Source: Patescibacteria group bacterium (GTDB taxonomy: Bacteria > Patescibacteriota > Patescibacteriia > UBA1558). Taken from it: a DNA stretch of 64,000 bases. The notes below the pieces were generated by a model. That model made no database searches, was not told the DNA's origin, and was given only the letters and a program-made list of their open reading frames with translations. The stretch covers positions 19,464 to 83,463 of the forward strand of contig JADHUR010000001.1 of NCBI GenBank assembly GCA_016784445.1, written 5' to 3'. Below, in pieces: positions 3,524-50,759 of the stretch (position 1 is its first letter; each line of letters starts with the position of its first letter). The position numbers were made by a program, and so were the translations under genes.

Positions 3524-3526
3524 AAT

Positions 3527-5842: not shown

Positions 5843-5847
5843 ATGAT

Positions 5848-6249: not shown

Positions 6250-6253
6250 ATTT

Positions 6254-6706: not shown

Positions 6707-6708
6707 GA

Positions 6709-6867: not shown

Positions 6868-6877
6868 ATGTTTTAAA

Positions 6878-7138: not shown

Positions 7139-7139
7139 A

Positions 7140-7478
7140 TTATTTATCTACTTTTTTAATTCTCTTAATTACAGCATCTTGAAATATTCGAAAAGCATGT
7201 CGTTTTTCTTTCACATAAATATAAGGCATGCCTATGATGAAACCACACTTATTACATTTTAAAACCTTCACATCTTTTATATTCTTCTTTTGTAAATCAA
7301 CTAATTTATCTGGACTCAATATTCTATCCATATACATTCTTCGCAAATTTCCAGGACCATCCTTTTGATACACAGCTACAATATTCTCACACTTACGGCA
7401 CATAATATTAAGTAAACGAGAATATCCACCCCTCGCCGATTTATACTTATCTTTCTTTATTGCTATCGATTTTTTCAT
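7140..7478 (-). CDS. zinc-ribbon protein, unknown function
   Basis: CRKCEN ... CNKCG is a C4 pattern; the protein is basic. It is tightly packed between the MazG-like gene and rarA. Confidence 0.4.
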   Translation of the reverse strand: MKKSIAIKKDKYKSARGGYSRLLNIMCRKCENIVAVYQKDGPGNLRRMYMDRILSPDKLVDLQKKNIKDVKVLKCNKCGFIIGMPYIYVKEKRHAFRIFQDAVIKRIKKVDK

Positions 7479-34292: not shown

Positions 34293-35876
34293 TTATATTA
34301 AGCTCGTACCAGTCATTTGGTCGGGCTTTTTTAATTTCATAATTTTCAATATTGTAGGAGCAACATCAGATAGAATACCAGTTGGTACTTGTCCTGCTAA
34401 ATTTTGAGGTGTTACACCCGGAATTATTGCCTTACCCTTTAACTCATTTGCTAGAATATATAATGGTACAGGATTTACTGAATGTTCTTTTACCATCTCC
34501 CCTGTTTGCAAATTGAATAACTCTTCTGCATTACCATGATCTGCTGTAATCATAGCTACCCCTTCGCTCTCAAGTACTGCATCTACAATTCTACCAACAC
34601 TTTCATCAATATATTCTATAGCCTCAATAGTTGCCTTAATATTTCCTGTATGTCCCACCATGTCTGCATTGGCAAAGTTTAAAACAATAAAGTCATACTT
34701 ATCTGCCTTAATCTCTTTAAGTACTGCTTCTGTTACTTTATCTGCACTCATTTTAGGCTCTTCATCATATGATGCTATTCTAGGTGATGCAATGAGTACT
34801 CTATCCTCTCCCTCATATTCATTTTCCTTACCACCATTAAAGAAAAATGTTACATGAGCATATTTCTCTGTTTCAGCAATATGTAATTGTTTAAGACCAG
34901 CCTGAGATATAACTTTAGCAAGCGGCTCTTCTATCGCAATTGGTGGGAATGCAACTTTGATTGGTAAATCCTTCTCATACTCTGTCATTGCTACAAAATA
35001 TATATTTGGAAAATACTCACGATCAATTACTAATTTATCAAAACTCGGTAATACAAATGCTTTTGTTAATTGTCTAACTCTATCTGCTCTATAATTAAAA
35101 CATATTATTGAATCTTTATCTTTAATAATGCCTTGAGATTTATCATTCTCAATTACAACAGGAATAAACTCTTCATCATATACGCCCTGTTCATATGAAG
35201 CCTTAATAGCATCGGCTGCTGTTTTAAATTTATTAATAGACTTTCCATTTACCATTGCATCATATGCCTTTGTAATTCTCTCCCAATGATTATCTCTATC
35301 CATTGCATAATATCTTCCAGAGATTGTTGCAATTTTACCGATGCCAATACTTGTAATTTTACTTTCCAGTTTAGCAATAAATTTTTCACCTGCATTATAT
35401 GATGTATCTCTACCATCTAATATTATATGTATATACACATTTTCTACTTCTTGTTGTTTAGCAACTTCAAGTAATGCATAAAGATGTTCATTATAGCTAT
35501 GTATTCCACCATCAGACAAAAGACCAATCATATGCAATGAACTATTATTATCCTTTGCATGTTTACAGGCAGCAATAAATTCTTCATTCTCATAAAATGA
35601 ATTATCTGCAATTGCTTTAGTAATGCGTGGCAGACTCTGATAAATGATAGTACCACTTCCAAGTGATAAATGACCTACCTCTGAGTTGCCCATTTCACCC
35701 CAAGACAGCCCCACAGACTCTCCAGACGCCTGTAATGTCACAACTGGGTATTGCAAGACATAGCCGTCCAAATTAGGCGTTTTAGCAAGTTCTATAGCAT
35801 TAGCTTTAGCAGCTGGTGCTGTACCCCATCCATCTAATATCATTAAGACAACTGGCTTCGGTCTATCTTCAAACAT
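34293..35876 (-). CDS. gpmI: 2,3-bisphosphoglycerate-independent phosphoglycerate mutase (iPGM), copy 1
   Basis: VVLMILDGWG, catalytic-Ser region GNSEVGHLSLGSG, LLSDGGIHS, ISGRYYAMDRDNHWERI, ADHGNAEE. Confidence 0.9.
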   Translation of the reverse strand: MFEDRPKPVVLMILDGWGTAPAAKANAIELAKTPNLDGYVLQYPVVTLQASGESVGLSWGEMGNSEVGHLSLGSGTIIYQSLPRITKAIADNSFYENEEFIAACKHAKDNNSSLHMIGLLSDGGIHSYNEHLYALLEVAKQQEVENVYIHIILDGRDTSYNAGEKFIAKLESKITSIGIGKIATISGRYYAMDRDNHWERITKAYDAMVNGKSINKFKTAADAIKASYEQGVYDEEFIPVVIENDKSQGIIKDKDSIICFNYRADRVRQLTKAFVLPSFDKLVIDREYFPNIYFVAMTEYEKDLPIKVAFPPIAIEEPLAKVISQAGLKQLHIAETEKYAHVTFFFNGGKENEYEGEDRVLIASPRIASYDEEPKMSADKVTEAVLKEIKADKYDFIVLNFANADMVGHTGNIKATIEAIEYIDESVGRIVDAVLESEGVAMITADHGNAEELFNLQTGEMVKEHSVNPVPLYILANELKGKAIIPGVTPQNLAGQVPTGILSDVAPTILKIMKLKKPDQMTGTSLI

Positions 35877-37428
35877 GTTTTTTTGTAATCAAAGAATTAG
35901 CTGTCATAAGTTTAGGTTTCTTTACATCAAGCATATCCAGTATTGTAGGGGCTACATTAGCTAAACTTCCTGTCTTTAATTTATATTTATGCTTATTTAC
36001 AATAATGAAAGGTACTACATTATCTGTATGTTCTGTATGCACTTCTCCTGTTTCTAAATTAATCATCTCTTCAGCATTTCCATGATCGGCAACAATAATT
36101 AAACTACCATTAGTCTTATCTACTGATGCCTGTATTTGACCAACGGCCCTATCTACAGCCTCTACTGCCTTAATACCAGCAAGTAAATTACCCGTATGAC
36201 CAATCATATCTGGATTTGGAAAGTTTACACATATAAAATCATACTGTTTTTCTTTAAGACTATTAACAATTATCTTCGTTAAATCTTTAATAGACATCTC
36301 AGGTCTCATAGCATAGGACTTAACTTTAGGAGATGGAACTTTAATACGGGCCTCACCATCTACTGGATCAGCATATCCACCATTAAAAAAGTATGTAACG
36401 TGTGCAAATTTTTCACTTTCTGAAATATATAATTGAGTATAATCTTTAAGTGCCATAGGTAATGTATCTTTTACATCTTCACTTGGATAGGCAACTAATA
36501 TTTCACCGAGATCTGGACCAAAATCTGTCATCGCAACAAATTTAATATTCTTAAACACTCTTTGCCTATGAAATGACTCTGGATTCATCTTGCCAAAATC
36601 TTTTTGAACAAAAGCTTTTACTAATTGTCTAGCCCTATCTGATCTTAAATTAAAGAAAAATACCGAATCATTTTCTTTAATAGTAACTATAGATTTTGCA
36701 TCTTTAGCAATAATTGTTGGCTTGATATATTCATCTGTCTCATTTCTATTATATGCTTGTAATATAGCTTCCTCTGGAGTACTAACAAGTCTACCAGTAC
36801 CTTTTGTTAAAAGATCATATGCTTTCTGAGTTCTTGTCCATGATTTATTCCTATCCATTGCATAAAATCTACCCATGATAGAAACAATCTTTTCTCCATT
36901 TTTGAAACCTTTCTTCACCTCATCAAGATATGTTAAAGCTGCATGCTGCGGAGCATCTCTACCATCTGTAAATAGATGAATATATACATTAGCAACATTG
37001 TGCTGCTTCATTAATTCTAATAATCTCAATAAATGGCCACGTTCTGCATGCGCTGATTCATGGCCAGATAATAATCCCATTAAATGGATAGCGGATTTAT
37101 TCTTCTTTGCATATTTAATTGCATCAATAAATGCAGGGTTTTTAAAGAACCTACCACTAGCAATGGCATCATTAATAATAACTGAATCTTGCTTTACAAT
37201 TCTTCCTGCTCCTAAATTTAAATGGCCAGCCTCTGAATTACCAAATTGATTACGAGGAAGGCCAACATATTTACCAGAAGCTTGCAAAGTTGTATGAGAA
37301 TAATTATCCCAAAACTTATCTATATTCGGTGTATTAGCTATTGCTATTGCATTACCTTTGGAGGGCTTGGCGAGTCCCCATCCATCTAATATTGCAAGAA
37401 CTATTGGTTTATATTCTTTATTTGTCAT
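35869..37428 (-). CDS. gpmI: iPGM paralog, copy 2 (divergent metal-site motif)
   Basis: IVLAILDGWG, GNSEAGHLNLGAG, MGRFYAMDRNKSWTRT and ADHGNAEE are conserved, but the SDGGVHSH box reads LLSGHESAHAERGH. Confidence 0.85.
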   Translation of the reverse strand: MTNKEYKPIVLAILDGWGLAKPSKGNAIAIANTPNIDKFWDNYSHTTLQASGKYVGLPRNQFGNSEAGHLNLGAGRIVKQDSVIINDAIASGRFFKNPAFIDAIKYAKKNKSAIHLMGLLSGHESAHAERGHLLRLLELMKQHNVANVYIHLFTDGRDAPQHAALTYLDEVKKGFKNGEKIVSIMGRFYAMDRNKSWTRTQKAYDLLTKGTGRLVSTPEEAILQAYNRNETDEYIKPTIIAKDAKSIVTIKENDSVFFFNLRSDRARQLVKAFVQKDFGKMNPESFHRQRVFKNIKFVAMTDFGPDLGEILVAYPSEDVKDTLPMALKDYTQLYISESEKFAHVTYFFNGGYADPVDGEARIKVPSPKVKSYAMRPEMSIKDLTKIIVNSLKEKQYDFICVNFPNPDMIGHTGNLLAGIKAVEAVDRAVGQIQASVDKTNGSLIIVADHGNAEEMINLETGEVHTEHTDNVVPFIIVNKHKYKLKTGSLANVAPTILDMLDVKKPKLMTANSLITKKHV

Positions 37429-38683
37429 TTAATTGATTATATATTTCTAAAAGCCTATTATATTTTACAACTCTTTCCCCTCTTGAAGTTGCTCCTGTTT
37501 TTATGTATTCAGCATTAACAGCTACTGCTAAATCTGCAATGAAATCATCTGTTGTTTCACCACTTCTATGTGAGATAGCAATCTTATATTCATTATCTTG
37601 TGCAAGTTTTATAGCTGCCATTGTCTCTGATACTGACCCAATTTGATTTACTTTAATAAGAATAGCATTAGCTACACTCTCATCTATACCCTTTTGTAAT
37701 CTTTTAACATTAGTTACAAAAAGATCATCTCCAATAAGTGGAATACCTTTAAACGTCTCATTTGCTGTCATCGTTTTCCAACCAGTCCAATCATCTTGAT
37801 CAAGTGGATCTTCAAGTGCAAGTATTGGATAATCTTTTACCCAAGACTCAAACATAGCTATCATATCTTCTGAAGAGGCTTTAATACCTTCTCCTTTTAA
37901 TTCATATAAGCCAGACTCTTTATTATAGAATTCTGATGAACCAGCATCCATTCCCATGTATATATCCATGCCAGGTTTATATCCTGCATCTTTAATTGCT
38001 TTAGCAATAGCTTCCCAAACCTCCTTGGCTGTATTTAATTGTGGTGCATAGCCACCTTCATCACCAACATTTGTAGAATGACCACCAGCTTTTAATTCAG
38101 TACCTAAAGTATGGAAAACCTCAACGCAAGATCTAAGAGCTTCTGGATAATCTTTAATACCAGCTGGAATAATCCAAAACTCCTGCCAATCTAAAACATT
38201 ATCTGCATGCTCTCCTCCATTTACAATATTTGAAAGTGGAGTTGGTAATAGATAATCCTTTTTATCTAATGAATATATATCTCTTAAATGTTCATATAAT
38301 GGTTTATTACTTGCTAGTGCCCCTACTCTAGCTGCTGCTAGTGACACTCCCAAAATTGCATTAGCTCCAAACTTACTCTTATTTTCTGTACCATCTGCTG
38401 CAATCATCATACTATCTAAATTCTGTAAATCATTTACATCTTGCCCAATAAGTAATTTAGCAATATCTTTATTAACATTAATAATAGCTTTTAATACGCC
38501 TTTACCACCAAATCTTTTCTTATCTCCATCTCTCAATTCTAAAGCTTCATGCACACCTGTTGAAGCACCGGAAGGAACGGAAGCTTTTGCCTTAAAGCCA
38601 CCTACCACACCTACAGTTACTTGAATTGTAGGATTACCTCTTGAATCTAATATCTCTATAGCCTCTATTGATTTAATTTTCAT
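37418..38683 (-). CDS. eno: enolase
   Basis: SRGNPTIQV ... GASTGVHEA ... SHRSGETTD. Confidence 0.95.
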   Translation of the reverse strand: MKIKSIEAIEILDSRGNPTIQVTVGVVGGFKAKASVPSGASTGVHEALELRDGDKKRFGGKGVLKAIINVNKDIAKLLIGQDVNDLQNLDSMMIAADGTENKSKFGANAILGVSLAAARVGALASNKPLYEHLRDIYSLDKKDYLLPTPLSNIVNGGEHADNVLDWQEFWIIPAGIKDYPEALRSCVEVFHTLGTELKAGGHSTNVGDEGGYAPQLNTAKEVWEAIAKAIKDAGYKPGMDIYMGMDAGSSEFYNKESGLYELKGEGIKASSEDMIAMFESWVKDYPILALEDPLDQDDWTGWKTMTANETFKGIPLIGDDLFVTNVKRLQKGIDESVANAILIKVNQIGSVSETMAAIKLAQDNEYKIAISHRSGETTDDFIADLAVAVNAEYIKTGATSRGERVVKYNRLLEIYNQLNDK

Positions 38684-38684
38684 A

Positions 38685-39800
38685 TTATTTATTATTTAAT
38701 TTTTTTAATATTGGTAATTGCTTACTCTCTAAATATTGAAGCATTGCTCCCCCTCCAGTAGATATGAAATTATAGTATTTATGTAAATTCAAATGCTTAA
38801 TAATTGCTAATGTTTCGCCTCCACCTACAATTGTTTTTGCCTTAGCTGAAGCTATTGCCATAGCGACTGCATAACTTCCTTTTTCATAACCAACCCTTTC
38901 AAATACTCCCATTGGACCGTTCCAAATAATAGTCTTTGCTCCTTTTATTATATCCGAATAATACTCTATTGTAATTGGCCCAATGTCTAATATTTTATCA
39001 TAATTCTTAACTTCTGCCACAGGTTTAATTATTCTCTTATTCCTTGACTCAACAACCACATCTATTGGTAAAAGTATCTTTTTATTCAATAATTTCTGAC
39101 ACATATCTACCATTTCTGGCTCATATAATGATTTACCGATTGGTAAATCTAATGCTTTCAAAAAATTATTAGCAAGTGCACCACCTACTATTAAATAATC
39201 TACTTGTGGTAATAGTTTTTTAATTAGCTGGACTTTTGTAGATATCTTTGCACCGCCCATTACAGCAACGCCACCTTTAGATTTTCTTAAATCTAAATTC
39301 TGTAATTCATGTTCAAATCTATAGCCAATATATGTTGGTAAATAATCTGGTAAATAATATACTGATGAATCATTTCTATGACTTGATGCGAATGACTCAA
39401 ATACAAAATAATCTCCTAGGTCTGCCAATTCCTTAGCAAATTTTTTACTTCCCTTTTGTTCTTCCTTATTAAAACGAATATTCTCTAAGAGTATTAATTT
39501 CGCACCACTGTCTTCTACTTTCAAATAATCTGTTATAAACTCTACTTTCCGTTTTAGTAACTTCTCTAAACTATTTACAACTGGTTTTAGACTTAAAGAT
39601 CTATCTATTCCCTCGGGTCTTCCAAAATGAGATATTAAAACAACCTTTGCTTTTTGTTTAAGAAGATAATTAATTGTAGGTAATGCTGCCTCAATCTTAA
39701 AATCATCCAAAACTTTTCTACCTTTAAGAGGTACATTAAAATCTACACGTACAAGTACTGTCTTATCCTTTATATTTTTTAATGTTTTAAGTTTTTTCAT
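38685..39800 (-). CDS. pgk: phosphoglycerate kinase
   Basis: VLVRVDFNVPL ... the hinge and ATP-binding motifs; the start overlaps the upstream gene's stop (ATGA). Confidence 0.95.
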   Translation of the reverse strand: MKKLKTLKNIKDKTVLVRVDFNVPLKGRKVLDDFKIEAALPTINYLLKQKAKVVLISHFGRPEGIDRSLSLKPVVNSLEKLLKRKVEFITDYLKVEDSGAKLILLENIRFNKEEQKGSKKFAKELADLGDYFVFESFASSHRNDSSVYYLPDYLPTYIGYRFEHELQNLDLRKSKGGVAVMGGAKISTKVQLIKKLLPQVDYLIVGGALANNFLKALDLPIGKSLYEPEMVDMCQKLLNKKILLPIDVVVESRNKRIIKPVAEVKNYDKILDIGPITIEYYSDIIKGAKTIIWNGPMGVFERVGYEKGSYAVAMAIASAKAKTIVGGGETLAIIKHLNLHKYYNFISTGGGAMLQYLESKQLPILKKLNNK

Positions 39801-42800
39801 TCTACTTTCTTTGGTCTTAATATTACTTCATGCATTGTATCACCGCCCTGAGAATAACTACCTTTCTCTTCCATGATAAACTCTACGCCAATATCTTTAC
39901 CTAACTTATCCAATTGTTTGTTTATTATCTTATATGACGTCTTGTCTCTCAACTGAGCATATATCGGCAGCATATTATCTTTTTCAGCATAATGCTTTTT
40001 ATACAGCTCTGTAAATGCTAGAATCAATGAACCACCTGCCTTAACACTACCATCTGAAGCCATATCTGACACATAGATAACGGATTCTCCATTTTTATCT
40101 ATTTTACCCTCATAAGATAATAGATAGCCATGCATTTTTCCTTTTGTATCCTCATATTTTATACTCATATTTGGCCTATCTTTAGCTGCATTATTAACGT
40201 CCTTTGCTATAAGAGCATTCTCCATGTTATGTAAATACTCTATTAAACTTTCATTGTCTTTATATGCTTTACCCTCGATATAAGAAACTCGCAAACTATC
40301 ATGGAAATCTAAAGGTTTAACTCCTTTAGGTAATTTAATACCCTCACTAACATCAGATTCAACAGCCCTTCTAACTTTCTTTTTAAATCCTTTTGCACCC
40401 TTCTCTTCCTCTAATCCCAACCTATAAGCTTGACGTCCCAAATTATCACTGTAAGCAACTGGTGCTTCTGGGGTAAAAGTATTGGCAACGGTCGGTAAAT
40501 CGGTCAAAGCATCTGTATATCCCATACCAACAATTACTTGGCCCATATCTAGTTCATCTTGCTCTCCATACAAAGATAAGTATTCTCTAAAATAATCCTC
40601 ATATATATCTTTAATAACCGCTTTATCTCCAGAAAAGTTTTGAGCAACCTCAATATTGTCACATGTTATGATTCCCGGCTTATCAATCAATAAATCTTCC
40701 TCTACCAATTCATTTAATTTAACTTTGGACGATGTCATTTGCTTAACTACATCAGCTATATTTTTGTTAATATCTATATTTCTAGTTAAAACACTTTGTG
40801 CAACTGTACGCCACGTGCCATCAGCAGTTTTCCTTTGAATAGTAAATAAAGAACAGATTGGGTTAAAAGTATATACATTGTTCTTACCAGATCCAAAAGG
40901 CATACAACAAGCTGTATCATTGCCAGCCACTACTCCATCAGGATCAGATTTTTTGTTAATTTTAGCTCTATACTCAATCCTAGGTGACTTACTCGATAAA
41001 CCAATCTCACTATCTAACAACAATTCTCTAGCCTGATCTATTACAAGTTCCGCTTCCGGAAAATCCTCAGCTACATTTGCTGATTGCAAATAATCAATTA
41101 ATTTAATATTAGATTGTTTAAATAATTTAGTAAGTTCACTAAAAAGCTTGTTTGGATTTTTAGCTTTACCTTTTATCCCTTCACTCCGCTTACCAACCGC
41201 CTGCCAAATCACATCAGGTAAAGGCTTAGCCTCGGCCTCAACTCCACCAAACTTATATTCAATTTCTAAAGATTTAAAGGATTGAATCTTATCATAGTCA
41301 CCCGCAATCAATGCATCACGTAATTCTTCCCCAGTTAAATCCAAATTTGGAATATCAGTATAGTTCGATGGCTTCTTCCTTCTCTGAACATCCTCTGGCG
41401 TATGAGCATCATCAAGCTCTAAAAAACTATCAATATCTTGCCAAAAATCCATTACTTTCTTTAAAGCTATATTAGGATGAAATGCTAAAGTCTCCACATA
41501 TCTATATAAATCTTCTTTACCCTCAACCTTTAAAGACTGTAGCTTATCTAATATTTCCTTTCTCTTTAATAAATCATTAATCTCACTGTATTTTTTCAAT
41601 AATTTCCAGGACCCAAAAATTTGTTCAGGTGATTCAATCTCATCTAAAAGTTCTTGTAATTTTGTAATGTTTGGATATTTTCTAGCATCATTAATAACAG
41701 CCCCAAAATCAGTGTTAACATTCATAGCTAAACTATTTAATGTATGATGAGCAGTGCCCCATTCATACTCCGCATCATCCTGTTGTACTTGTTTTAATAT
41801 ATTATTGAAAAATTGCTCGGGTTTAAGACCGGACTCTTTATATAAAACATAAATCTGATTAAAATTATGCAACCCATCATGACGTGACAACCCATCCCTG
41901 TCTAAATACTCAAATACAGCAGACGCTCCAAACGCTTCTTTGGCAACATCAAATGGATCTATAATATTCTGCTCATCTTCCCAAATATCTGAATTTTCTT
42001 TTAATATTTCATAGAACTTATCTGCCTGTTCATCCCTACTTAAACTTTCATCAACACTATCTTCCACTAAATAATACTCCGATGGCCTTAAATGATACGA
42101 CTTAGCTTTTTCAAACCAATCTCCTTCGAAACTGTTCACATTTTTATCAACAATTTCCGCCTTGCCATCTTCAAGTAGTCTACTAACTACCTCTTTACTG
42201 AGAGAAGAAAAATTACCAAGATTTTCAGAAACTGCTCCACTCATAAATGAATCCAATATTTTAAGAGCTACTTCATTATGATTAATTCCTGAAAAATTAT
42301 TAAGATTTTCTGCAAGAGCATAACATTCTTGGGCATCTATCATTCTATATACTATCTCCTCATGATTAATACCTGAAAACTGATCAAGATTTCTTGCTAC
42401 AGACTTAGCTGCATGATGTTCAACCATCATAAGCGCAACCTGATTATCAAGACCTGAAAATGCCTGAAAATTATCGGCTACACCCTCTGATTGTTCCAAC
42501 TCTATTAACTTCATAGCAATCTCTTTATCGAGCCCACTAAAACTACTAGAATATCCATGAACCATCCACGGCTTCTCAGACTTTATTAGTTCTAGTGCCA
42601 CCTCTTTATCTAGTCCACTAAAATTTCTCAGAGTTTCTCCAAAATCAATGGAAAGATTGCCAGCCTTAATTATTTTTAAAGCTATCTGCTTATGATCAAG
42701 TCCGGAAAACTTATGCAAATGAGTTGCAACTACACTTCCTTGACCCGCGTTAATCATCTTAAGGGCTATCTTCTTGCGATCAAGATCCGAAAAATTGTTT

Positions 42801-44314
42801 AAATTTATAGCTAAAAATTCTGCTTGATCTGTTTCTATCATTTTTAAGGCCACCCATTTATGATCAAGTCCAGAAAAATTATTTAAATTCTCAACTACTA
42901 CTGATGCCTGATCTGTTACCATCATTTTTAAAACAATCTCTTTATGATCAAGTCCTGGAAATTTATTAAGATTCTCAGCCACTACTGATGCCCATCGTGC
43001 TTCTATTATTTTTAAAGCTGACTCTCGATTTAAATTGTCAAAAGAATCAAAATTTAAAAATATGGCCTTCATGCTGTTAACTGATATCAATTGCGATGCT
43101 ACTTCTCCGTCCAAGTTAGAAAATTTATCGAGATTATTTAACACTACACCCAAATCACCTGCATTAATGGCCATTAGAGCTATTTTCTTGTAATTTATTT
43201 TTGTAAAATTATTAATTTTTCTAACCACAGTAGCAGCTGCGCCCAATTCAATCATCTTTAAAGCTATCTCGTTATCAAGTCTAGAAAATAAACTTAAATG
43301 CTCCACTAAAGGCATGACCTGACCCATATCAAGAATTTTAATAGCTAATTCTTTATGATCTAAACCCTTAAAATTATTTAAATATTTTGCTACATATCTA
43401 CCTTTACCTTCCTCAACCATTTTCATAGCTATCTCTTTGTGATTCAAATTTCTAAAATTTGATAAGTACTCAGCTACATATTCACACCCATCCTCTGTAT
43501 CAGCTTCAATTAATTTCATAGCTATCTCCCAATTATCTACCTCTTTAAGTTTATATAAATTACTTGTTACAAACTTTACATCACCGACTTCGATTGACTT
43601 TAAAATTACTTTAGTATCAATATTTTTAAAGAAAACAAAATTTTCAGTGACACTCTTGCCATCACCTGCCTCAATTAGTTTCATAGCAATATCTTTATGA
43701 TATGCCTCGTTAACTTTATCAATGTGTCTAGCTACGTATTTACCAGCACCTGCATCTATTACTCTGATAAGGATTTCCTTTTGATTCTCCTTAGCAAATT
43801 CATTAATAAACTCAGCTGCATATTCACCCGCACCTGCATCTATAGTCTTCATAATGAATTCTTTACGATCTACTCCTGTAAAATGTTTTAAACTCCTCAA
43901 TACGACACTGGGGTAATTAGCATTTATTAAGGCCATTGCAATTTGCTCATGATCTGTTTCTTTAAAATTATCAATATACTTAACCAAAAGAACAATGTCG
44001 TCCCCTAATACTTCTATTATTTTTGAGACCAACTCCTTATGATTTACTCCATTGATAAACTGTAAATTTTTTAAAAGAAAATCTACCCTTCCCGATTTCA
44101 TAAATTTACTTATATCACGCTTCCTATCCCAAGGAGCTTGAAAACCATCATCAGACCGTGTTTCTAAAAAACTACCGTCTAGTAAATCTGAAACTACTCC
44201 ATCCAAGTCTACCTGCTGTTTACTCGTAAGAGTGTCCACGTTACCATTTTCTTCATTTTCAATAGAATTTTTATTTTCAATCGGAATATTCGGTTGTTGT
44301 TCTGGATTAAACAT
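39797..44314 (-). CDS. giant (1505 aa) tandem-repeat protein: about 24 copies of a 28-aa alpha-helical-type repeat, then a roughly 700-aa non-repetitive C-terminal region; no signal peptide or TM
   Basis: An uninterrupted 4.5-kb ORF. The repeat consensus is roughly NLNNFSGLDHKEIALKMIEAGQGSVVAE, with period 28 aa, spanning about aa 90-790. The start is 1 nt after the hypC stop and the stop overlaps the pgk start. Confidence 0.7.
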   Translation of the reverse strand: MFNPEQQPNIPIENKNSIENEENGNVDTLTSKQQVDLDGVVSDLLDGSFLETRSDDGFQAPWDRKRDISKFMKSGRVDFLLKNLQFINGVNHKELVSKIIEVLGDDIVLLVKYIDNFKETDHEQIAMALINANYPSVVLRSLKHFTGVDRKEFIMKTIDAGAGEYAAEFINEFAKENQKEILIRVIDAGAGKYVARHIDKVNEAYHKDIAMKLIEAGDGKSVTENFVFFKNIDTKVILKSIEVGDVKFVTSNLYKLKEVDNWEIAMKLIEADTEDGCEYVAEYLSNFRNLNHKEIAMKMVEEGKGRYVAKYLNNFKGLDHKELAIKILDMGQVMPLVEHLSLFSRLDNEIALKMIELGAAATVVRKINNFTKINYKKIALMAINAGDLGVVLNNLDKFSNLDGEVASQLISVNSMKAIFLNFDSFDNLNRESALKIIEARWASVVAENLNKFPGLDHKEIVLKMMVTDQASVVVENLNNFSGLDHKWVALKMIETDQAEFLAINLNNFSDLDRKKIALKMINAGQGSVVATHLHKFSGLDHKQIALKIIKAGNLSIDFGETLRNFSGLDKEVALELIKSEKPWMVHGYSSSFSGLDKEIAMKLIELEQSEGVADNFQAFSGLDNQVALMMVEHHAAKSVARNLDQFSGINHEEIVYRMIDAQECYALAENLNNFSGINHNEVALKILDSFMSGAVSENLGNFSSLSKEVVSRLLEDGKAEIVDKNVNSFEGDWFEKAKSYHLRPSEYYLVEDSVDESLSRDEQADKFYEILKENSDIWEDEQNIIDPFDVAKEAFGASAVFEYLDRDGLSRHDGLHNFNQIYVLYKESGLKPEQFFNNILKQVQQDDAEYEWGTAHHTLNSLAMNVNTDFGAVINDARKYPNITKLQELLDEIESPEQIFGSWKLLKKYSEINDLLKRKEILDKLQSLKVEGKEDLYRYVETLAFHPNIALKKVMDFWQDIDSFLELDDAHTPEDVQRRKKPSNYTDIPNLDLTGEELRDALIAGDYDKIQSFKSLEIEYKFGGVEAEAKPLPDVIWQAVGKRSEGIKGKAKNPNKLFSELTKLFKQSNIKLIDYLQSANVAEDFPEAELVIDQARELLLDSEIGLSSKSPRIEYRAKINKKSDPDGVVAGNDTACCMPFGSGKNNVYTFNPICSLFTIQRKTADGTWRTVAQSVLTRNIDINKNIADVVKQMTSSKVKLNELVEEDLLIDKPGIITCDNIEVAQNFSGDKAVIKDIYEDYFREYLSLYGEQDELDMGQVIVGMGYTDALTDLPTVANTFTPEAPVAYSDNLGRQAYRLGLEEEKGAKGFKKKVRRAVESDVSEGIKLPKGVKPLDFHDSLRVSYIEGKAYKDNESLIEYLHNMENALIAKDVNNAAKDRPNMSIKYEDTKGKMHGYLLSYEGKIDKNGESVIYVSDMASDGSVKAGGSLILAFTELYKKHYAEKDNMLPIYAQLRDKTSYKIINKQLDKLGKDIGVEFIMEEKGSYSQGGDTMHEVILRPKKVE
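41950..44050. repeat. intragenic tandem repeat array, period about 84 bp, about 24 units (encodes the 28-aa protein repeats)
   Basis: Recurrent nucleotide blocks such as tcaagtcc(a/g)gaaaa...ttaa(a/g)ttctca are visible by eye; the coordinates are approximate and derived from the protein repeat span. Confidence 0.55.
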
Positions 44315-44315
44315 A

Positions 44316-44519
44316 TTAGTTAAATAGTTTCATTAAATTATCTGCATCCTCTGTCGGAATAATTTGTAATACATAACCATTCTGAGCCAAGAAGAAATCT
44401 CCTATCTTAATATCCCCTTCTAAGACATCTGTTTTAAATTCCTTCTCTTCATCACTAATAACGCCAATAACAATATTGTCTTTAATGCTTTTTACTTTGT
44501 ATGGAATAGTCATGCACAT
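44316..44519 (-). CDS. hypC: [NiFe]-hydrogenase maturation chaperone HypC (start at the internal ATG, MCMTIP)
   Basis: The HypC family begins MC(L/I)x(I/V)P; the tracked ORF's 26-aa extension overlaps the upstream gene and is discounted. The 68-aa protein is ...VIGVISDEEKEFKTDVLEGDIKIGDFFLAQNGYVLQ. Confidence 0.7.
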   Translation of the reverse strand: MCMTIPYKVKSIKDNIVIGVISDEEKEFKTDVLEGDIKIGDFFLAQNGYVLQIIPTEDADNLMKLFN

Positions 44520-44520
44520 A

Positions 44521-44775
44521 TTAATTTCCGTCAATTGATACAAGCTCCCAATCATCACCTTCAACAACTGATATATTAACAAGGGCCGTTTCAGCAATAG
44601 TTCCCTTTGCTAAATTCTTTATATTAAATTCTAAATTACTTGGATTTATAATTTCACCATGTTCTTCTATTTGCCCAAGGCGAATATCCATCTCCTTAAC
44701 TATCTTAAGCCTATTCTCTACTGCCTTTTCCAAAACAAGTTTTAAAATTCTATTTGCTTCGTGTAAATCATGCAT
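44521..44775 (-). CDS. HypA-like protein: N-terminal Ni-binding (MHE-motif) domain only, no zinc-finger Cys
   Basis: MHDLHEANRILKLVLEKA...KIVKEMDIRLGQIE...LEFNIKNLAKGTIAE resembles the HypA N-domain (MHE...), but the protein has 85 aa and no cysteine. Its stop is 1 nt before the hypC ATG. Confidence 0.45.
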   Translation of the reverse strand: MHDLHEANRILKLVLEKAVENRLKIVKEMDIRLGQIEEHGEIINPSNLEFNIKNLAKGTIAETALVNISVVEGDDWELVSIDGN

Positions 44776-44780
44776 AAAAT

Positions 44781-46031
44781 TTAATGTGTTGCGCAACTAA
44801 TACAAGGATCGTATGCGCGTATTAATAGTCTAATCTTTTGTCTTCTTTCTTTTGCTGTCATATCTTTAATATTTGGTAAATACATTGCTAAATCATCCTC
44901 AAGATTAAATAAAAATTGAGCTGTTGGAGTAATAATATTACAATCTTGAATAATTCCATCCTTGTCTAATTTATAATAATGGAATAATGTACCACGTGGT
45001 GCCTCCATGGCAGCTACTGCAAAACATTCCTTTACCCTATACTCTACCTGTCCTTCTTCCTTTAATTTTAAATCTTTCAATATCTTTTGTGATTCTTCCA
45101 ACATATGCACCAGCTCGACAGCTTGAGCTAGAATATTATAGAAAGAATTATATGTAGGTAATTTTACCCCAGATTCTTTTAATAGAGCTTTAGCTCTTGG
45201 ATTAAGTTGACTATGATTATTATTTAGCCTGGCAATAGCACCCACCATAAAAGACTTACCGGATAATTTAGCCTTCTTTACAGCTTCATACTGTTTTTTA
45301 ATCTCCGTTATCTTCTTACTAAATTTAGTACTAGATATTGTTTCTTCTTCTGAAGATTTAATATCTCCAGAATATATGCCATATTCCTTATCATTAAATA
45401 AACAAATATATTCTGTCTTTCTATTAAGTTCCGGATAATTTAATTTAATAAATAATTTAACAAGCTTTTCTGCTTTTTTAATTAAAGCTGGTAAACGATC
45501 ATTGATTTCATCTAAATCTTCTTGGGCTGGTAATATTTTAAACCCACCAACTTGTGAAGTAATGGGGTGAACAGTTCTACCACCAATTAAACGAATAAGG
45601 TCTGTTGCCCATCTACGAATATCCATTGCCATGTCCGCTTCCTTTGGATGTTTCTTTATTAATTGAAGGTCATTGAGTATTCCATAGAAATCGGGTAATG
45701 ATAAAAAGAATAAATGTAAACCATGACTATGTATTATTTGAGAATATTGCATTAACTTTCTTAAAGTCCTTGTTTGATCTGTTACTTTTACCTCTAATGC
45801 TTTTTCTAAGGACTCAATAGCTGTTAAATTATGTACAACCGGACAAATACCACAAATACGGGCAGTAATAATTGGAGCATCCATATAGTGACGACCAATG
45901 AGCATACCCTCAATAAGTCTAGCTCCTTCTTGTGTTTCAATTTTAGCTAATGCGACATTACCTTCTAAAATATGACCAACAAAACCAGCATGACCTTCCA
46001 TTTTTGCTAAATGATTTATTTGTATCTTCAT
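44781..46031 (-). CDS. [NiFe]-hydrogenase large (alpha) subunit, cytoplasmic group-3-type; ends exactly at the C-terminal His (no cleavable extension)
   Basis: L1 motif RICGICPVVH near the N-terminus and L2 motif DPCISCATH as the last residues; 416 aa. Confidence 0.9.
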   Translation of the reverse strand: MKIQINHLAKMEGHAGFVGHILEGNVALAKIETQEGARLIEGMLIGRHYMDAPIITARICGICPVVHNLTAIESLEKALEVKVTDQTRTLRKLMQYSQIIHSHGLHLFFLSLPDFYGILNDLQLIKKHPKEADMAMDIRRWATDLIRLIGGRTVHPITSQVGGFKILPAQEDLDEINDRLPALIKKAEKLVKLFIKLNYPELNRKTEYICLFNDKEYGIYSGDIKSSEEETISSTKFSKKITEIKKQYEAVKKAKLSGKSFMVGAIARLNNNHSQLNPRAKALLKESGVKLPTYNSFYNILAQAVELVHMLEESQKILKDLKLKEEGQVEYRVKECFAVAAMEAPRGTLFHYYKLDKDGIIQDCNIITPTAQFLFNLEDDLAMYLPNIKDMTAKERRQKIRLLIRAYDPCISCATH

Positions 46032-46780
46032 AGTTTTTCTTCTATATCATCTCTCAGGCCAAAGATTTCTATTATTCTATTCATTTTCTCTTGGCCGTGC
46101 TCTTTAATTAATTTTTTCATCATTATTTGTACTTGGGCACCATCAAATAGCCCTCTACAACCTTGACATGCCATTTTGCTCTTTAAACAAATTGCTTCAC
46201 AACCACCAAGTATTATTGGTCCAAGACAAGGTTCACCTTTTTGTAATAAACATTCATAACCTCTTGCTTGACATTCAAAACAAACTGGACGCTGTGGAAT
46301 ATTAACTCTCTCATCCCTCATTAATGCATATACCACTTTGTAAAACTCATCAGCATTAATTGGACAACCAGATATCTTAAAGTCTACCTTAACAATATTA
46401 TCTATCTCTTTAATGTCTGGATTCGCTACTGTAGACTTCTGTCCATAAATATATTCTTTAATCTTTTTCTTATCATGATAATTCTTAATCTCATGTACAC
46501 CACCCATAGCAGCACAATTACCAAGTGCAATTAAATACTTAGACTTCTCTCTAGCTTCTTTTAATGTCTTAACATTCTCTTTAGTAATTGGAGAACCCTC
46601 AATAAAACAAATATCATAATATGTATTATGATCAAACTCTTCTTCAAGTAATCTAAACTCTGCAAGATCTATTTGTTTTAAGAAATCTAGAAATTCTCTA
46701 CCGGTATCAAGTAATGCAAACTCACACCCTTCGCAGGATGTTAGACCAATAATTGCAATTTTTAACTTACGTTTCTGCAT
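46028..46780 (-). CDS. [NiFe]-hydrogenase small (delta) subunit with Fe-S clusters
   Basis: Proximal-cluster motif IIGLTSCEGCE; a C-terminal Cys-rich region CPINADEF...CFECQARGYECL...CLGPIILGGCEAICLKSKMACQGCRG. Confidence 0.85.
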   Translation of the reverse strand: MQKRKLKIAIIGLTSCEGCEFALLDTGREFLDFLKQIDLAEFRLLEEEFDHNTYYDICFIEGSPITKENVKTLKEAREKSKYLIALGNCAAMGGVHEIKNYHDKKKIKEYIYGQKSTVANPDIKEIDNIVKVDFKISGCPINADEFYKVVYALMRDERVNIPQRPVCFECQARGYECLLQKGEPCLGPIILGGCEAICLKSKMACQGCRGLFDGAQVQIMMKKLIKEHGQEKMNRIIEIFGLRDDIEEKL

Positions 46781-47254
46781 TTACATTAAGTTCTGCTTAA
46801 TTAAATCTACAATTTGTTCTGGATTATCTGTTGTAAAATAAAATTTCTTATTCTCAAGCTCTAGCAATACTCCCATATCATTTCCTGCAATATATCCCCA
46901 AGATCTATCCAATCTACCATATCTAATTCCATAACCCCAATAATTCTTAAATTCAAATTTCTTTATACTGACATTCTTTATATCCCCCTTATTAACTTTC
47001 TTTTTAAATATACCGAAACCAAATTGAACAAATTCAGTAGTGATTACAACTTTCAAGTTTTTAAAGAATATAAATAATAGAATAAAAATAACAGCCATTA
47101 TTAGAAATGCCATTCCATCTTCTTGCCTGAAAGCTGCAATGCCATATTCATAATAGTTGCTAACAAGTGACACAATCAAGACAAATGCAACAACAAGGAA
47201 TACTATTATTGCCATTATGCTTGAGTTTTGTTTTTCTTCGTAAATATTATTCAT
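46781..47254 (-). CDS. small membrane protein (2 TM plus a soluble C-domain)
   Basis: ORF overlapping its neighbours by 1 nt and embedded between the hydrogenase subunit genes. Confidence 0.35.
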   Translation of the reverse strand: MNNIYEEKQNSSIMAIIVFLVVAFVLIVSLVSNYYEYGIAAFRQEDGMAFLIMAVIFILLFIFFKNLKVVITTEFVQFGFGIFKKKVNKGDIKNVSIKKFEFKNYWGYGIRYGRLDRSWGYIAGNDMGVLLELENKKFYFTTDNPEQIVDLIKQNLM

Positions 47255-48039
47255 TAATTCGTAAATGTTATTTTATTAATCTTAGTATTATTTTCAACAG
47301 CTTGATCTATTTCTCTCTGACCAGCTACTTGTTTGTAATTATCCCCCCGTCTATTTTCTATTTCACTAATAATATTCATATAAACATTCTTTTTAAAAAT
47401 CTTCTCATCTGTATAATCTATTACTCTATCCTTAACTGTTTCTAATATATCTTTCCAATATTTATGATCTGCTTGTTTAAGTAAAATATCATCATCTGTT
47501 TTAGATTTCTTGTCTACTACTACTCCAAAATGTTGCCAAACAATGTTCCCCACAACGACATTCAAATTGTTTGGAATAATTACATTTCTGTACACTATAT
47601 TATCTCCTTCAAGCTCTGCAATAGTCGCTCCTTCACTTTCATATATTTTAATTATATTAGCTATAGACAAGGTATGAGCTAAAGCATAGCTAGCACCCTT
47701 CAACTTAATAATTTCATTATTCTCAATAGTGTTTAAATGATCAAGGGCAAAACATTTTATTACATCATCTCTTGAAAGGTATAGCTTTTTATGTTCCTGA
47801 GCATACTGCGCAAGGGTTGCTGGGGCGGCTGTTAATATATGTTTTGAAATATCTGCAAGTAATACAAATTCTTTATCTATATAATCTTCTAAATTAATAT
47901 CTATTAAACAGTCTGGATTTAGGAATAGATTAGAAATTATCCTTAGTCCATCTCCAGATACCTTAATTTTATCGAAATCTACAAAACTCAACCTCCTGGT
48001 CTTTTCAACAAGCTCTATCTGTTTCTTAGTAAACGCCAT
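47254..48039 (-). CDS. hypothetical soluble protein (261 aa)
   Basis: ORF with coupled starts and stops; no motif recognised. Confidence 0.4.
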   Translation of the reverse strand: MAFTKKQIELVEKTRRLSFVDFDKIKVSGDGLRIISNLFLNPDCLIDINLEDYIDKEFVLLADISKHILTAAPATLAQYAQEHKKLYLSRDDVIKCFALDHLNTIENNEIIKLKGASYALAHTLSIANIIKIYESEGATIAELEGDNIVYRNVIIPNNLNVVVGNIVWQHFGVVVDKKSKTDDDILLKQADHKYWKDILETVKDRVIDYTDEKIFKKNVYMNIISEIENRRGDNYKQVAGQREIDQAVENNTKINKITFTN

Positions 48040-48929
48040 TGTTTTATATTTAATGACTTGAGGCTATACATAATATACAAACCAAAGATAATAAATGCTA
48101 TTCCGATAAAGGCCATGCCTGACATACTCTTATCTAAAAATACCATTGTTAAAATAGCTGTAATTGGAGCGCCAAGTGCTAAGACAGAAGTTGCCTCAAC
48201 AGCACTTACATGTTTAAGTCCTGAATAAAAAGTTGTCACATAAGCAATAAGTAATACTGCGGTAATACCAACCCAACCCCATTGTTCCATGGATAAATTT
48301 GTTACTAAGCTAAACTTACCCGTAATAAGCAAAAATACCCAAATAAAAATACTACCAAAAAACATTCTAGAACCGGCTACAATATTTGCGGGTAAATCAT
48401 TTAATAGTTTTTTAGAAAGTAATATTTCAACAGACCACAATAATACTGAGCCAAAAACAAGAAGGTCTCCAATATTTAATGCCTGAGGTTTAATATTTAA
48501 AAATAGTATATTACCAATAAGTAATGAAATAATTCCCACCCAAACATATTTACTTGGCTTATTCTTTAAAAATACAACTGACATTAATGCTATTACTAAA
48601 AACATGCTCTTGTGAATGAAACCAGCTTTTACAGCTAATGTTAAACTTAAACCTTTAAAAAACATCAAGAACGGAATAGCGCCACCAATAAGTCCAATAA
48701 GTAATAACAATAGCCATTGTTTACCTTTGATCTCTTTTAAGGACTGTTTGTTTATAAGCAATAATGCTCCAACAAGGAATACTGCAACAACTGTATTTTT
48801 TAAACCTGCAAAAACATACGGATCACTCATTGCAATACCAAACTTGTTTACAAATATTGAAATACCTGAAATAAAAGCGGTAGCAAGTACTAATAGAAAA
48901 CCTTTTTTTGTTTTATCTTTCATTATCAT
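48015..48929 (-). CDS. EamA/DMT-superfamily transporter (10 TM)
   Basis: Two repeated five-TM halves, typical of drug/metabolite transporter permeases. Confidence 0.65.
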   Translation of the reverse strand: MIMKDKTKKGFLLVLATAFISGISIFVNKFGIAMSDPYVFAGLKNTVVAVFLVGALLLINKQSLKEIKGKQWLLLLLIGLIGGAIPFLMFFKGLSLTLAVKAGFIHKSMFLVIALMSVVFLKNKPSKYVWVGIISLLIGNILFLNIKPQALNIGDLLVFGSVLLWSVEILLSKKLLNDLPANIVAGSRMFFGSIFIWVFLLITGKFSLVTNLSMEQWGWVGITAVLLIAYVTTFYSGLKHVSAVEATSVLALGAPITAILTMVFLDKSMSGMAFIGIAFIIFGLYIMYSLKSLNIKQWRLLRNR

Positions 48930-49783
48930 ATTAAATCTGGATTATTTATTAAATCATTAACATTAAATACAGGCCCATCTTTGCATATATATACATCATT
49001 CACTGCACAATGCTGACAAACACCAATACCACAATACATTCTTCTTTCCAGTGAAAAATATATATCTTCATCTGCAAATCCTAATTCCTGTAATTTTTTT
49101 ATAACCGGCTTATACATTGCAGGCGGCCCCACCATAAATACCGTTGAATCTTTATCTATATTATCTCCATTTAAAAGTTGAGTAATTACCCCCTTAACTA
49201 CCTTAGCATTTGCAACTGCAGTTGCCCTTTTAAGTCTATCTACTGAAATACCTAGCCTTATATCATTATTAACCCAATTAGCCATCTCATCTTGATACAT
49301 TAAATACTCTATTTCATTACTACCACATAATACCTGTACTGTATTTTCTTTAAAATATTTAGAACTAATTATATGTTCAATCTCACCTCTTATAGGAGCT
49401 ACCCCAGAACCACCAGCAATTAAAATAATATTTGGTTTTGCAAGTTTATTTAAATTTGGCCAACCATTACCAAATGGCCCCCTAAATGTTAATATATCTC
49501 CGACTTTTGAATCTACTAATTTCTTAGTTAAAAAACCAACCTGCTTAACAGTAACTTGCATATATTTAGACGACTTGTCCGAAGGAGAGCAGATATCTAA
49601 AGCACATTCACCTGCTCCTATAATACCAACCATTGCAAATTGCCCCTGTATAAAAGCATACTTCTTTTGAACTTTAGAATCTTCAAATTGCAGAGTAAAT
49701 AAAGCTGCATCATCTGCCACTGCTTTTATCTTTACTATTTTAACTCTTTGTGGTAAATATGGATCAATCATTTTTCTTCTCAA
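48926..49783 (-). CDS. hydrogenase gamma subunit (FAD/NAD(P)-binding PyrK/AsrB-like reductase with C-terminal 2Fe-2S)
   Basis: FRGPFGNGW, IAGGSGVAPI (NAD-binding), and a C-terminal CGIGVCQHCAVNDVYICKDGPVF. Confidence 0.8.
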   Translation of the reverse strand: MRRKMIDPYLPQRVKIVKIKAVADDAALFTLQFEDSKVQKKYAFIQGQFAMVGIIGAGECALDICSPSDKSSKYMQVTVKQVGFLTKKLVDSKVGDILTFRGPFGNGWPNLNKLAKPNIILIAGGSGVAPIRGEIEHIISSKYFKENTVQVLCGSNEIEYLMYQDEMANWVNNDIRLGISVDRLKRATAVANAKVVKGVITQLLNGDNIDKDSTVFMVGPPAMYKPVIKKLQELGFADEDIYFSLERRMYCGIGVCQHCAVNDVYICKDGPVFNVNDLINNPDLI

Positions 49784-50759
49784 GCTTGTTTAATACTTCA
49801 ATTATATTTATTCCAACAGGACAAACTTTAAAACACCTCATACAACTAACACATCCTGGTACTTTATACTCTGCTGGTGTTCTACTAAATTTATGCTCAT
49901 ACCAAAAGAATAGTTTCTGTTTAACAGTATCTACAAATTTTTTACCGCCAGCCACTTGTGAAAACTCTGGATAAAAGCAATTACCCCAAACTCTTTTTTT
50001 AGAAACTGTATTGTCTGCACCAGCTTCATCTAATAGATCAAAACAAAAACATGTAGGACATGCTGTTGAACATTTACCACAAGCTGTACAAATCTTTGCA
50101 ATTTCATCCCAAACTGGATTATCTTCAGACCCCTTAACAATGGGCATTAACTTTAACATTCTTTGATCCGGACCCTCTTCTTGTATAAGACCAGCAAATT
50201 GAATATTTTCAAAGACATCAATGCCAGCACCTCTTAATACTTTTCTACCTTTAGCTGAACCAGAATATACTTTAAACTCACCTTCTTTATTTTTTTCTAA
50301 GAAAATATCGAAAGGAATATGTTCAAGTACATTCTCCACCTTATCCATTGAGAATATCTTATATTCCTCATAATCTGCTGGAGCGCCAGATGAAATACCA
50401 ACAACTAAACCATTTTCTCTTTTTGCTAAATAATATGGATCATTTGTAAACACTAAATCAAAAAGACCAAGTGCCTTTAAATCTAAAACATTCATGCCAT
50501 ATGCCGCCTTACCTTTTACTTTACTTAAATCTGGTTTAATTAATTTATCTTTCTTCCAAGAAAAAAGCTCTTCTTGGTCTGGCAAGAAAAGCTGCTTAAA
50601 AGTATTATCTGGAATACGACTAGAATAGTCTATATTATCAATATTATTTACACCCTTTACAATTAGTTCATCCTTAGAAAGAACTGGTGCATAAATATCG
50701 TATTGTTTAGCAATATATATTGCTAATTTATCTATCTCATTTTTTAGCATAAGTAGCAT
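49764..50759 (-). CDS. hydrogenase beta subunit (AsrA/HydB-like, two [4Fe-4S] ferredoxin motifs)
   Basis: CTACGKCSTACPTCFC and CVSCMRCFKVCPVG. Confidence 0.8.
   Translation of the reverse strand: MLLMLKNEIDKLAIYIAKQYDIYAPVLSKDELIVKGVNNIDNIDYSSRIPDNTFKQLFLPDQEELFSWKKDKLIKPDLSKVKGKAAYGMNVLDLKALGLFDLVFTNDPYYLAKRENGLVVGISSGAPADYEEYKIFSMDKVENVLEHIPFDIFLEKNKEGEFKVYSGSAKGRKVLRGAGIDVFENIQFAGLIQEEGPDQRMLKLMPIVKGSEDNPVWDEIAKICTACGKCSTACPTCFCFDLLDEAGADNTVSKKRVWGNCFYPEFSQVAGGKKFVDTVKQKLFFWYEHKFSRTPAEYKVPGCVSCMRCFKVCPVGINIIEVLNKLEKKND

Follow-up and report, generated by a model that had tools for sequence, protein, structure and literature searches.

The closest described relatives of the enzyme considered here are the archaeal group 3b [NiFe]-hydrogenases, namely SHI and SHII of Pyrococcus furiosus and Hyh of Thermococcus kodakarensis, in which the large (alpha) subunit is made with a 4-residue peptide after its last histidine (428 versus 424 amino acids) and is matured by a protease. 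In the complex between T. kodakarensis HyhL and HypA, this C-terminal peptide displaces the N-terminal strand of the subunit, and the strand then recruits HypA, as described in the passages on the complex in two papers (PMC7294309, PMC12134894). Large subunits without an extension have been reported for groups 2b, 2d, 4c and 4e, to which Hartmann et al. 2020 (PMC7294309) adds 4g; group 3b is not on the list. The enzymes of groups 2b and 2d (H2 sensors), 4c (CO-linked), 4e (Ech) and 4g end at the conserved histidine; they dispense with an endopeptidase yet remain active (PMC7294309, PMC12134894). As for the nickel chaperone itself, reviews of 2025-2026 call the two-domain architecture of HypA conserved, and its zinc domain is said to stabilize HypA and to be essential for partner interactions (PMC13202556). 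Here we analyzed a 64-kb stretch of DNA (the window) from a Patescibacteria group bacterium, that is, a member of the candidate phyla radiation (CPR). It carries the operon of a predicted group 3b-type hydrogenase whose large subunit is encoded without any C-terminal extension and is accompanied by a single-domain HypA, called mini-HypA below, which has no zinc module. An initial annotation, made from the sequence of the same stretch, had seen in this locus either a streamlined maturation route or a decaying, non-functional remnant.

The large subunit (416 amino acids; 44781..46031, minus strand) matches Pfam NiFeSe_Hases (PF00374) with 125 bits against a cut-off of 25.8, as well as NCBIfam ShyA/HydA, and its best Protein Data Bank (PDB) matches are T. 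kodakarensis HyhL (5yxy) and P. furiosus SHI alpha (9e1j), with residues 2-416 aligned at E ~1e-65. Both metal-binding cysteine motifs, RICGICPVVH (L1) and DPCISCATH (L2), are intact. The protein ends ...RAYDPCISCATH, directly followed by TAA, and its last residues are DPCISCATH. The same final histidine was found in all of the 120 best database homologues (Patescibacteria, 50-100% identity) and in 78 of 78 complete large subunits from related loci. The related loci were drawn from a set of 84 in Patescibacteria; two metagenome loci from outside the CPR (L087 and L088) were examined as well. The scans for loci were queried with one alignment (A3) and a single protein, the more diverse alignments (A2, A5) having too much variation for this purpose.

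In large subunits generally, the terminal histidine is the residue after which the maturation endopeptidase cuts. The window protein has no C-terminal pro-peptide for such an enzyme to remove, and since it ends at the very histidine where others are cut, alpha is predicted to be translated already in its "processed" form, with no endopeptidase step. The initial annotation had read the terminus as DPCISCATH-stop with the peptide absent, which the exact coordinates and the relatives bear out. Its description of the last residue as the Ni-site histidine is right about the terminal position and wrong about the nickel: in solved standard enzymes, this histidine ligates a nearby Mg/Fe ion. A frameshifted continuation of the gene, which would have changed this picture, does not exist downstream of the stop, and the relatives stop at the same place.

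The gene for mini-HypA (84 amino acids; 44521..44775, minus strand) starts 5 nt past the stop codon of the large subunit, with ATG-CAT (Met-His), and mini-HypA likewise lies downstream of the large subunit in 79 of the 79 related loci that have one. The protein begins MHDLHE, possesses His5 and a Glu38-His39 loop, and contains no cysteine at all, so that the Met-His-Glu/Asp start of HypA is present and the zinc site with its two CxxC motifs is missing, both as initially annotated. Fifteen close homologues are all of ~84 amino acids and cysteine-free, with MHDLH, Glu38-His39-Gly40 and Trp76-Glu77-Leu78 invariant. Furthermore, a profile search of 1.84 billion representative sequences returned 240 proteins, of which the best-scoring are mostly 79-95 amino acids long and match the whole profile; this short form makes up ~90 of the best 150 matches and spreads over many clusters at 50% identity. 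Canonical HypAs (110-140 amino acids, two CxxC motifs) were reached only at E>1e-7 and over profile positions 1-72 only.

The structural comparison agrees with these results. The AlphaFold2 (AF2) model of mini-HypA, built from an alignment of 86 sequences, has a predicted local distance difference test score (pLDDT) of 93.3 and consists of two helices and four main strands. In a Foldseek search against the PDB, the top 14 matches are all HypA with probability 1.0, the best being 3a43_B (template modeling score 0.86, root-mean-square deviation 1.8 A), and the next match falls below a probability of 0.3. The last strand of mini-HypA (GDDWELVSIDG) aligns to the strand that follows the zinc module in canonical HypAs, and the Zn(Cys)4 module has therefore been cut out precisely. 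Because its short relatives match the whole profile and the model covers the full nickel domain, mini-HypA is, as modeled, a complete single-domain HypA and not a fragment. Accounts of the reading frame as a frameshift, as a piece of a longer disrupted gene or as a spurious resemblance to HypA, the last two of which had been envisaged beforehand as ways in which the first reading might fail, were ruled out by the ~84-residue homologues, the profile search and the fold matches.

Compared with canonical HypA (T. kodakarensis 3a43, Helicobacter pylori 6g81, Escherichia coli HypA/HybF), mini-HypA shares the MH(E/D) start, the alpha/beta nickel domain and a gene adjoining a [NiFe]-hydrogenase, whereas the zinc module of ~35-40 residues is gone, an extra loop of 4-11 residues with an invariant Glu-His follows the first strand in the CPR proteins, and the CPR loci offer no HypB partner. 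Alpha itself differs from its archaeal counterparts in having no peptide after the histidine and an N-terminus ~5 residues shorter, and the recruitment of mini-HypA would therefore have to differ from that in T. kodakarensis.

These differences could also mean that the protein derives from HypA and has ceased to be a nickel chaperone, serving for instance as a structural or assembly partner of the large-subunit N-terminus. Such a change of role would suit the loss of a zinc domain held to be stabilizing and essential for partner interactions (PMC13202556), the missing HypB and the family scores. Pfam HypA (PF01155) gives 25.9 bits, below its cut-off of 28.9, with residues 1-73 covering positions 1-69 of a profile of 112, and the NCBIfam HypA models (TIGR00100 among them; E=1.7e-8) stay below their cut-offs as well (34.3 versus 146 and 31.9 versus 88.1 bits). 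The shortfall arises because the C-terminal half of the profile is left unmatched. However, Met1 is invariant and His2 at least 90% conserved across 86 diverse members of the short family; in the CPR type, Met1-His2-Asp3 and Glu38-His39 are invariant, and Met1-His2-Asp3 are the positions used for nickel binding in canonical HypA. In addition, the zinc-less form holds the hypA position in a non-CPR operon of the order hypA-hypB-hypF-hypC-hypD-hypE. We therefore regard a non-chaperone role as quite improbable.

The non-CPR loci are of interest in their own right. In two metagenome contigs of 54-56% G+C (L087:4137-4379, L088:8001-8243), a zinc-less HypA of 80 amino acids and MHE type heads a hyp operon; L087 has the order hypA-hypB-hypF, with the contig ending inside hypF, and L088 is the complete operon mentioned above; the hypF is of the full-length kind. 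The complete large subunit of L088 carries a C-terminal extension of 25 residues. Given that the zinc-less HypA stands beside hypB in both, and beside an extension in L088, the loss of the zinc module is not mechanistically tied to the loss of the extension or of HypB. Literature searches on zinc-less HypA and on CPR hydrogenase maturation returned nothing relevant.

Could both peculiarities simply reflect decay, with a truncated large subunit, a HypA fragment and lost maturation genes? A large subunit without the usual extension, a HypA of half the canonical length and the scarcity of hyp genes nearby would fit such a history. The same gene ends, however, recur in the 120 database homologues and the 78 related loci, all catalytic cysteine motifs are intact, mini-HypA is modeled as a complete domain, and the reading frames are tightly coupled without frameshifts or stops. 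The ratio of nonsynonymous to synonymous substitution rates (dN/dS), computed against a Komeilibacteria locus of 87% identity and rough because dS is ~1.2, was 0.064 for alpha, 0.042 for the delta subunit, 0.088 for the HypA-like gene and 0.129 for HypC (thus 0.04-0.13 for hydrogenase and hyp genes), with 0.17 for the EamA transporter and 0.23 for the 261-residue protein described below. The extension-less alpha and the zinc-less HypA are thus lineage traits, common to essentially all CPR relatives and evidently under purifying selection. Since both traits are real, conserved and selected for, the decay proposed as an alternative in the initial annotation is rejected as extremely unlikely.

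A further accessory protein of the locus, a HypC-family chaperone (67 amino acids; 44316..44519, minus strand), is encoded one base behind mini-HypA, whose stop codon (44521-44523) and the hypC ATG (44519) are separated by base 44520, the single nucleotide already noted in the first annotation. It resembles HypC/HybG/HupF in family (Pfam HupF_HypC, PF01455, 41.1 bits, cut-off 28.5), in size and in its N-terminal Met-Cys (start MCMTIPYKV). Unlike HypD-partnered members, it has no HypD nearby and, with Cys2 retained, it replaces the equivalent of His51 by glutamine (DFFLAQNGYVLQ); in sister loci, its His-less relatives are fused to HydE. Cys2 and His51 of HypC have been proposed as iron ligands on the HypCD scaffold, and their exchange abolishes activity in E. 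coli (PMC12134894). We compared the His51 column (E. coli numbering) over 54 HypC domains. Histidine occupies it in all five HypCs that adjoin HypD (four CPR, one non-CPR). The 37 stand-alone CPR HypCs have Gln (14), Asn (12), Leu (7), Glu (3) or Tyr (1), and the 11 HydE-fused domains have Thr (9) or Ser (2). For the CPR HypCs, a split of 4 with and 48 without histidine has a probability of ~4e-6 by chance (hypergeometric). Consequently, as His51 is missing in the window HypC and kept only beside HypD, use of the canonical HypCD scaffold is in doubt, and this is our main reason for looking beyond it. The known extension-less groups also differ in this respect, as they rely on full canonical HypA-F maturation, whereas the CPR enzymes go with a zinc-less HypA and, in most loci, a HypC without His51.

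A second line of evidence comes from the genes between the gamma and the small (delta) subunit, where the window operon has additional genes in comparison with archaeal group 3b. In the window, this slot holds an EamA/DMT-family transporter (304 amino acids; 48015..48929, minus strand; Pfam EamA, E=9e-37), a 261-amino-acid protein with no family assignment (47254..48039, minus strand; four distinct homologues) and, directly upstream of the small subunit, a small membrane protein of 157 amino acids (46781..47254, minus strand) that has no family match and occupies the same position in 12 related loci. Among 50 loci that span the whole operon, the slot contains HypC and EamA, with or without further genes, in 30; a HypC-HydE fusion in nine, some with an adjacent HydG and one as an 881-residue HypC-HydE-HydG triple fusion; the small membrane protein alone in seven; HypC alone in two; HypC-HypD-HypE with a C-terminal-only HypF in one; and none of these in the remaining one. 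Overall, EamA stands between the gamma and small subunits in 36 related loci and never together with a HydE/HydG cassette. The HypD, HydE and DUF6390/EamA cassettes do not co-occur in any related locus, and a rough tree of large subunits intermingles loci of the EamA type with those of the HydE type. Since all three cassettes contain HypC-type domains and exclude each other, we argue that the EamA cassette is related to maturation.

The fusions of a His51-less HypC to a HydE-type radical S-adenosylmethionine (SAM) enzyme inside group 3b operons (L002:5175-6455; L039:4550-5821, 5835-7205; L078:3454-6081; L042:1051-3696) have HydE parts that score 257-285 bits, above the NCBIfam cut-off of 254.6 for HydE, and the HydG proteins of sister loci score 574-631 bits versus a cut-off of 312. 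Their presence suggests [FeFe]-type maturases that may feed a [NiFe] enzyme; a literature search on HypC-HydE fusions returned nothing relevant. In the mostly EamA-type loci, a protein of ~255 amino acids of family DUF6390 (PF19927) is encoded just upstream of the small subunit (36 loci, for example, L075:4727-5491 and L026:3083-3859), directly after EamA where EamA is present. Its C-terminal 90 residues show homology to HypC (hhalign E=5e-9, probability 95.9%) with the cysteine and histidine retained, and three HypC structures are the top PDB sequence matches of this part. The N-terminal domain has a conserved Cys27 and His131/132/135; nothing relevant on DUF6390 was found in the literature.

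The 261-residue protein of the window sits in the slot position that DUF6390 takes in the 36 sister loci. Homologues occur in L001/L005 (one contig region), L004, L006 and L077. It is similar to DUF6390 in operon position (behind EamA/HypC and ahead of the small subunit), in length and in a shared G-x-x-V-x-x-H-(W/F)-G-V-V segment; it differs in having no "MDxCRISWG" cysteine and no significant Pfam or hidden Markov model (HMM) match, and homology is unproven. Searches for the protein yielded no Pfam match at E<=0.1, no NCBIfam match and an empty PDB sequence search, and a single-sequence AF2 model was unusable (pLDDT 31). It is clear from this inventory that the hydrogenase is not accompanied only by HypC and HypA, as initially annotated, given that three conserved genes, those of the EamA, 261-residue and 157-residue proteins, are part of the operon. 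The idea of a streamlined maturation stands for the protease-free alpha and the minimal HypA; it was incomplete as to the accompanying genes, and L087 and L088 indicate that a zinc-less HypA is not bound to streamlining.

Taking these observations together, the best overall explanation is a functional operon, typical of its lineage, in a Komeilibacteria-like CPR bacterium, with a maturation that may be independent of HypD; to this explanation we assign a probability of about 0.6. Its parts differ in strength. That alpha ends at the histidine, that mini-HypA is a complete nickel domain and that both traits are conserved and under selection can be held with high confidence; the independence from HypD is tentative, at somewhat less than even odds. 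According to this explanation, nickel would be bound by the free N-terminal Met1-His2-Asp3 motif of mini-HypA, with His5 and the invariant, CPR-specific Glu38-His39 loop possibly assisting, and would be passed to the large subunit without HypB. The His51-less HypC would carry the iron unit on Cys2, off the canonical HypD scaffold, and might partner the HypC-like 261-residue protein in the DUF6390 slot. Candidates for supplying CN and CO as ligands are HypE/F or a radical SAM enzyme of the HydG type encoded at another site, or import by EamA.

A more far-reaching version is doubtful. It would have the window bacterium, and most CPR with the HypC and EamA cassette, assemble the NiFe(CN)2CO site without HypD, HypE, HypF, HypB or a protease. 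The His-less HypC and a HypC-domain protein (DUF6390 or the 261-residue protein) would replace HypCD, either [FeFe]-type radical SAM maturases or a precursor imported by EamA would supply CN and CO, and nickel would be inserted by single-domain HypA alone.

An equally tentative alternative is that maturation is canonical, with hypD, hypE, a hypF (truncated) and a hypC that has the histidine, all elsewhere in the genome, building Fe(CN)2CO. Only the loss of the pro-peptide and the zinc-less HypA would then be unusual, and EamA, the 261-residue protein and the membrane protein would be unrelated. Many CPR genomes do have genes for HypC/D/E and for a HypF with only the C-terminal part, in some loci (L003, L013, L086) together with mini-HypA and an extension-less large subunit, and the extension-less regulatory and Ech hydrogenases use normal Hyp machinery (PMC7294309, PMC12134894). 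However, the window HypC has lost His51 like all 48 HypCs that are not HypD-linked, while 5/5 HypD-linked ones keep it; the HypCDEF, HypC-HydE/HydG and HypC+EamA+DUF6390 cassettes are mutually exclusive; and no HypD turned up in ~84 kb around the locus.

This negative comes from searching for relatives of the endopeptidase, HypB, HypD, HypE, HypF, HydE, HydG and SlyD with tblastn and phmmer, and with Pfam on ~40 open reading frames (ORFs), none being found in the 64-kb window; the ~10 kb beyond each window edge contain no hyp or hyd genes. The lack of a protease gene next to the locus, part of the initial description, thus extends across the window and both flanks. Neither the window nor the 84 CPR loci contain HypB, SlyD or a maturation protease, although the E. 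coli HycI, HybD, HypB and SlyD queries are approximate and their negatives weaker than those obtained with sequences from L003, L039 and L088. Apparent protease matches in CPR loci were response-regulator receiver domains that matched the C-terminal domain of a query, an L088 ORF adjoining hydrogenase genes. Judged by its N-terminal sequence, this ORF had looked like a maturation protease; Pfam gives only the receiver domain.

It is important to consider the points that weigh against HypD-independent maturation. The inspected span covers ~84 kb out of a genome of ~0.9 Mb, and hypD/E/F, hypB, hydG/E or a protease may be located outside it. In one related genome (L046), ~110 kb separate a hypC-hypD-hypE-hypF' cluster from the hydrogenase, both being on one contig; a lack of these genes near the window locus therefore does not mean that the genome lacks them. 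With two CPR HypDs as queries, a profile search gave at least 120 matches, all of those listed being other CPR HypDs and none of them on the window contig (193,465 bp) or the 860,445-bp contig; the search was saturated and is uninformative on absence. The link through the 261-residue protein is weak, as only residues 127-182, including an invariant His170, are HypC-like (hhalign probability 46%, E=2e-4), and the comparison with DUF6390 is not significant (hhalign E=0.012, probability 3.6%; local HMM E=23). EamA and the 157-residue membrane protein may be unrelated passengers. Finally, mini-HypA is a putative nickel binder whose Pfam family score is below threshold, and the activity of the enzyme is a prediction.

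The short HypF proteins of the CPR deserve a separate mention. They measure only 358-389 amino acids (L003:7422-8579, L013:1436-2563, L085:13390-14559, L086:11979-13055), match only the Pfam models of the Kae1-like C-terminal domains (HypF_C, HypF_C_2) and, at about half of full length, presumably do without the N-terminal acylphosphatase, zinc-finger and YrdC-like parts. A full HypF of 729 amino acids is found in L063.

These results bear on how hydrogenase maturation is understood, given that in reviews of 2025-2026 a two-domain HypA with zinc and a set of six proteins, HypA-F, count as universal. The window locus and its ~200 relatives form a large natural group 3b clade without the peptide, the protease, the zinc module of HypA and, apparently, HypB. 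They would thereby define a minimal nickel-insertion module that could simplify the heterologous production of hydrogenases. With the His51-less HypC, the HypC-HydE/HydG fusions and the HypC-like domain of DUF6390, alternative routes to Fe(CN)2CO become experimentally approachable, and the link of the window system to non-canonical assembly of the iron ligands is plausible but unproven. Furthermore, hydrogen metabolism in these small-genome CPR bacteria, in which the operon usually neighbors genes of lower glycolysis, would depend on a set of maturation proteins that routine annotation would rate as incomplete.

Regarding the operon as a whole, nine minus-strand genes follow each other with overlaps or gaps of <=5 nt, in the 5' to 3' order beta, gamma, EamA, 261-residue protein, membrane protein, delta, alpha, mini-HypA and HypC. 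The beta subunit (331 amino acids; 49764..50759, minus strand) is an AsrA/ShyB-like protein with a 4Fe-4S dicluster (Pfam Fer4_22, E=3e-24; best NCBIfam ShyB/HydB) and has counterparts in 47 related loci. The gamma subunit (285 amino acids; 48926..49783, minus strand) combines FAD/NAD(P)-binding and 2Fe-2S domains (Pfam DHODB_Fe-S_bind, NAD_binding_1, FAD_binding_6; NCBIfam PRK08345, ShyC), and the small (delta) subunit (250 amino acids; 46028..46780, minus strand) matches Pfam Oxidored_q6 (E=4e-26) and, best among NCBIfam models, ShyD/HydD. On domain content and the best family and PDB matches, the locus is assigned as the operon of a cytoplasmic, NAD(P)-linked [NiFe]-hydrogenase of group 3b (sulfhydrogenase type), a predicted assignment in which the subunits do not reach the NCBIfam equivalog cut-offs of the Shy/Hyd models (261 versus 700 bits). 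The composition alpha-beta-gamma-delta, the domain families and the L1/L2 cysteine motifs are those of P. furiosus SHI/SHII and T. kodakarensis Hyh. The window has a G+C content of 32%, its proteins are identical or closest to those of Patescibacteria/Candidatus Komeilibacteria metagenome-assembled genomes, and the gene order of the operon is repeated on an 860-kb Komeilibacteria contig (JBLYPX010000001.1).

Further along the same region, the hydrogenase operon is followed by genes of lower glycolysis, namely pgk, the enolase gene and two paralogues of phosphoglycerate mutase (iPGM) in tandem (34293-39800), and PGK also comes after mini-HypA in 46 related loci. Given these neighbors, a fermentative, redox-balancing role of the hydrogenase would fit. 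Between hypC and pgk lies a minus-strand ORF of 1505 amino acids (39797-44314) with many repeats of ~28 residues (motif ...NLNNFSGLDHKEIALKMI...; TRF period 84 nt), which has no Pfam match and is missing in Komeilibacteria contig L001, where the rest is syntenic. In five related loci (L012, L021, L030, L048 at 3096-3800, and L052), the hydrogenase operon includes a CbiM/NikM-type component of an energy-coupling factor (ECF) transporter for Ni/Co uptake; instead of an intra-operon CbiM/NikM, the window has a CorA-type transporter at 59159-60085. The operons of 14 related loci are interrupted by small 23S_rRNA_IVP/bAvd-like four-helix-bundle genes (L002:11338-11694 and L031:9605-9964 among them), one such site being the junction of the large-subunit and mini-HypA genes. 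Lastly, this CPR genome encodes an 850-residue TrwB/TraG-like type IV coupling-protein ATPase on the minus strand of the window (56077-58629).

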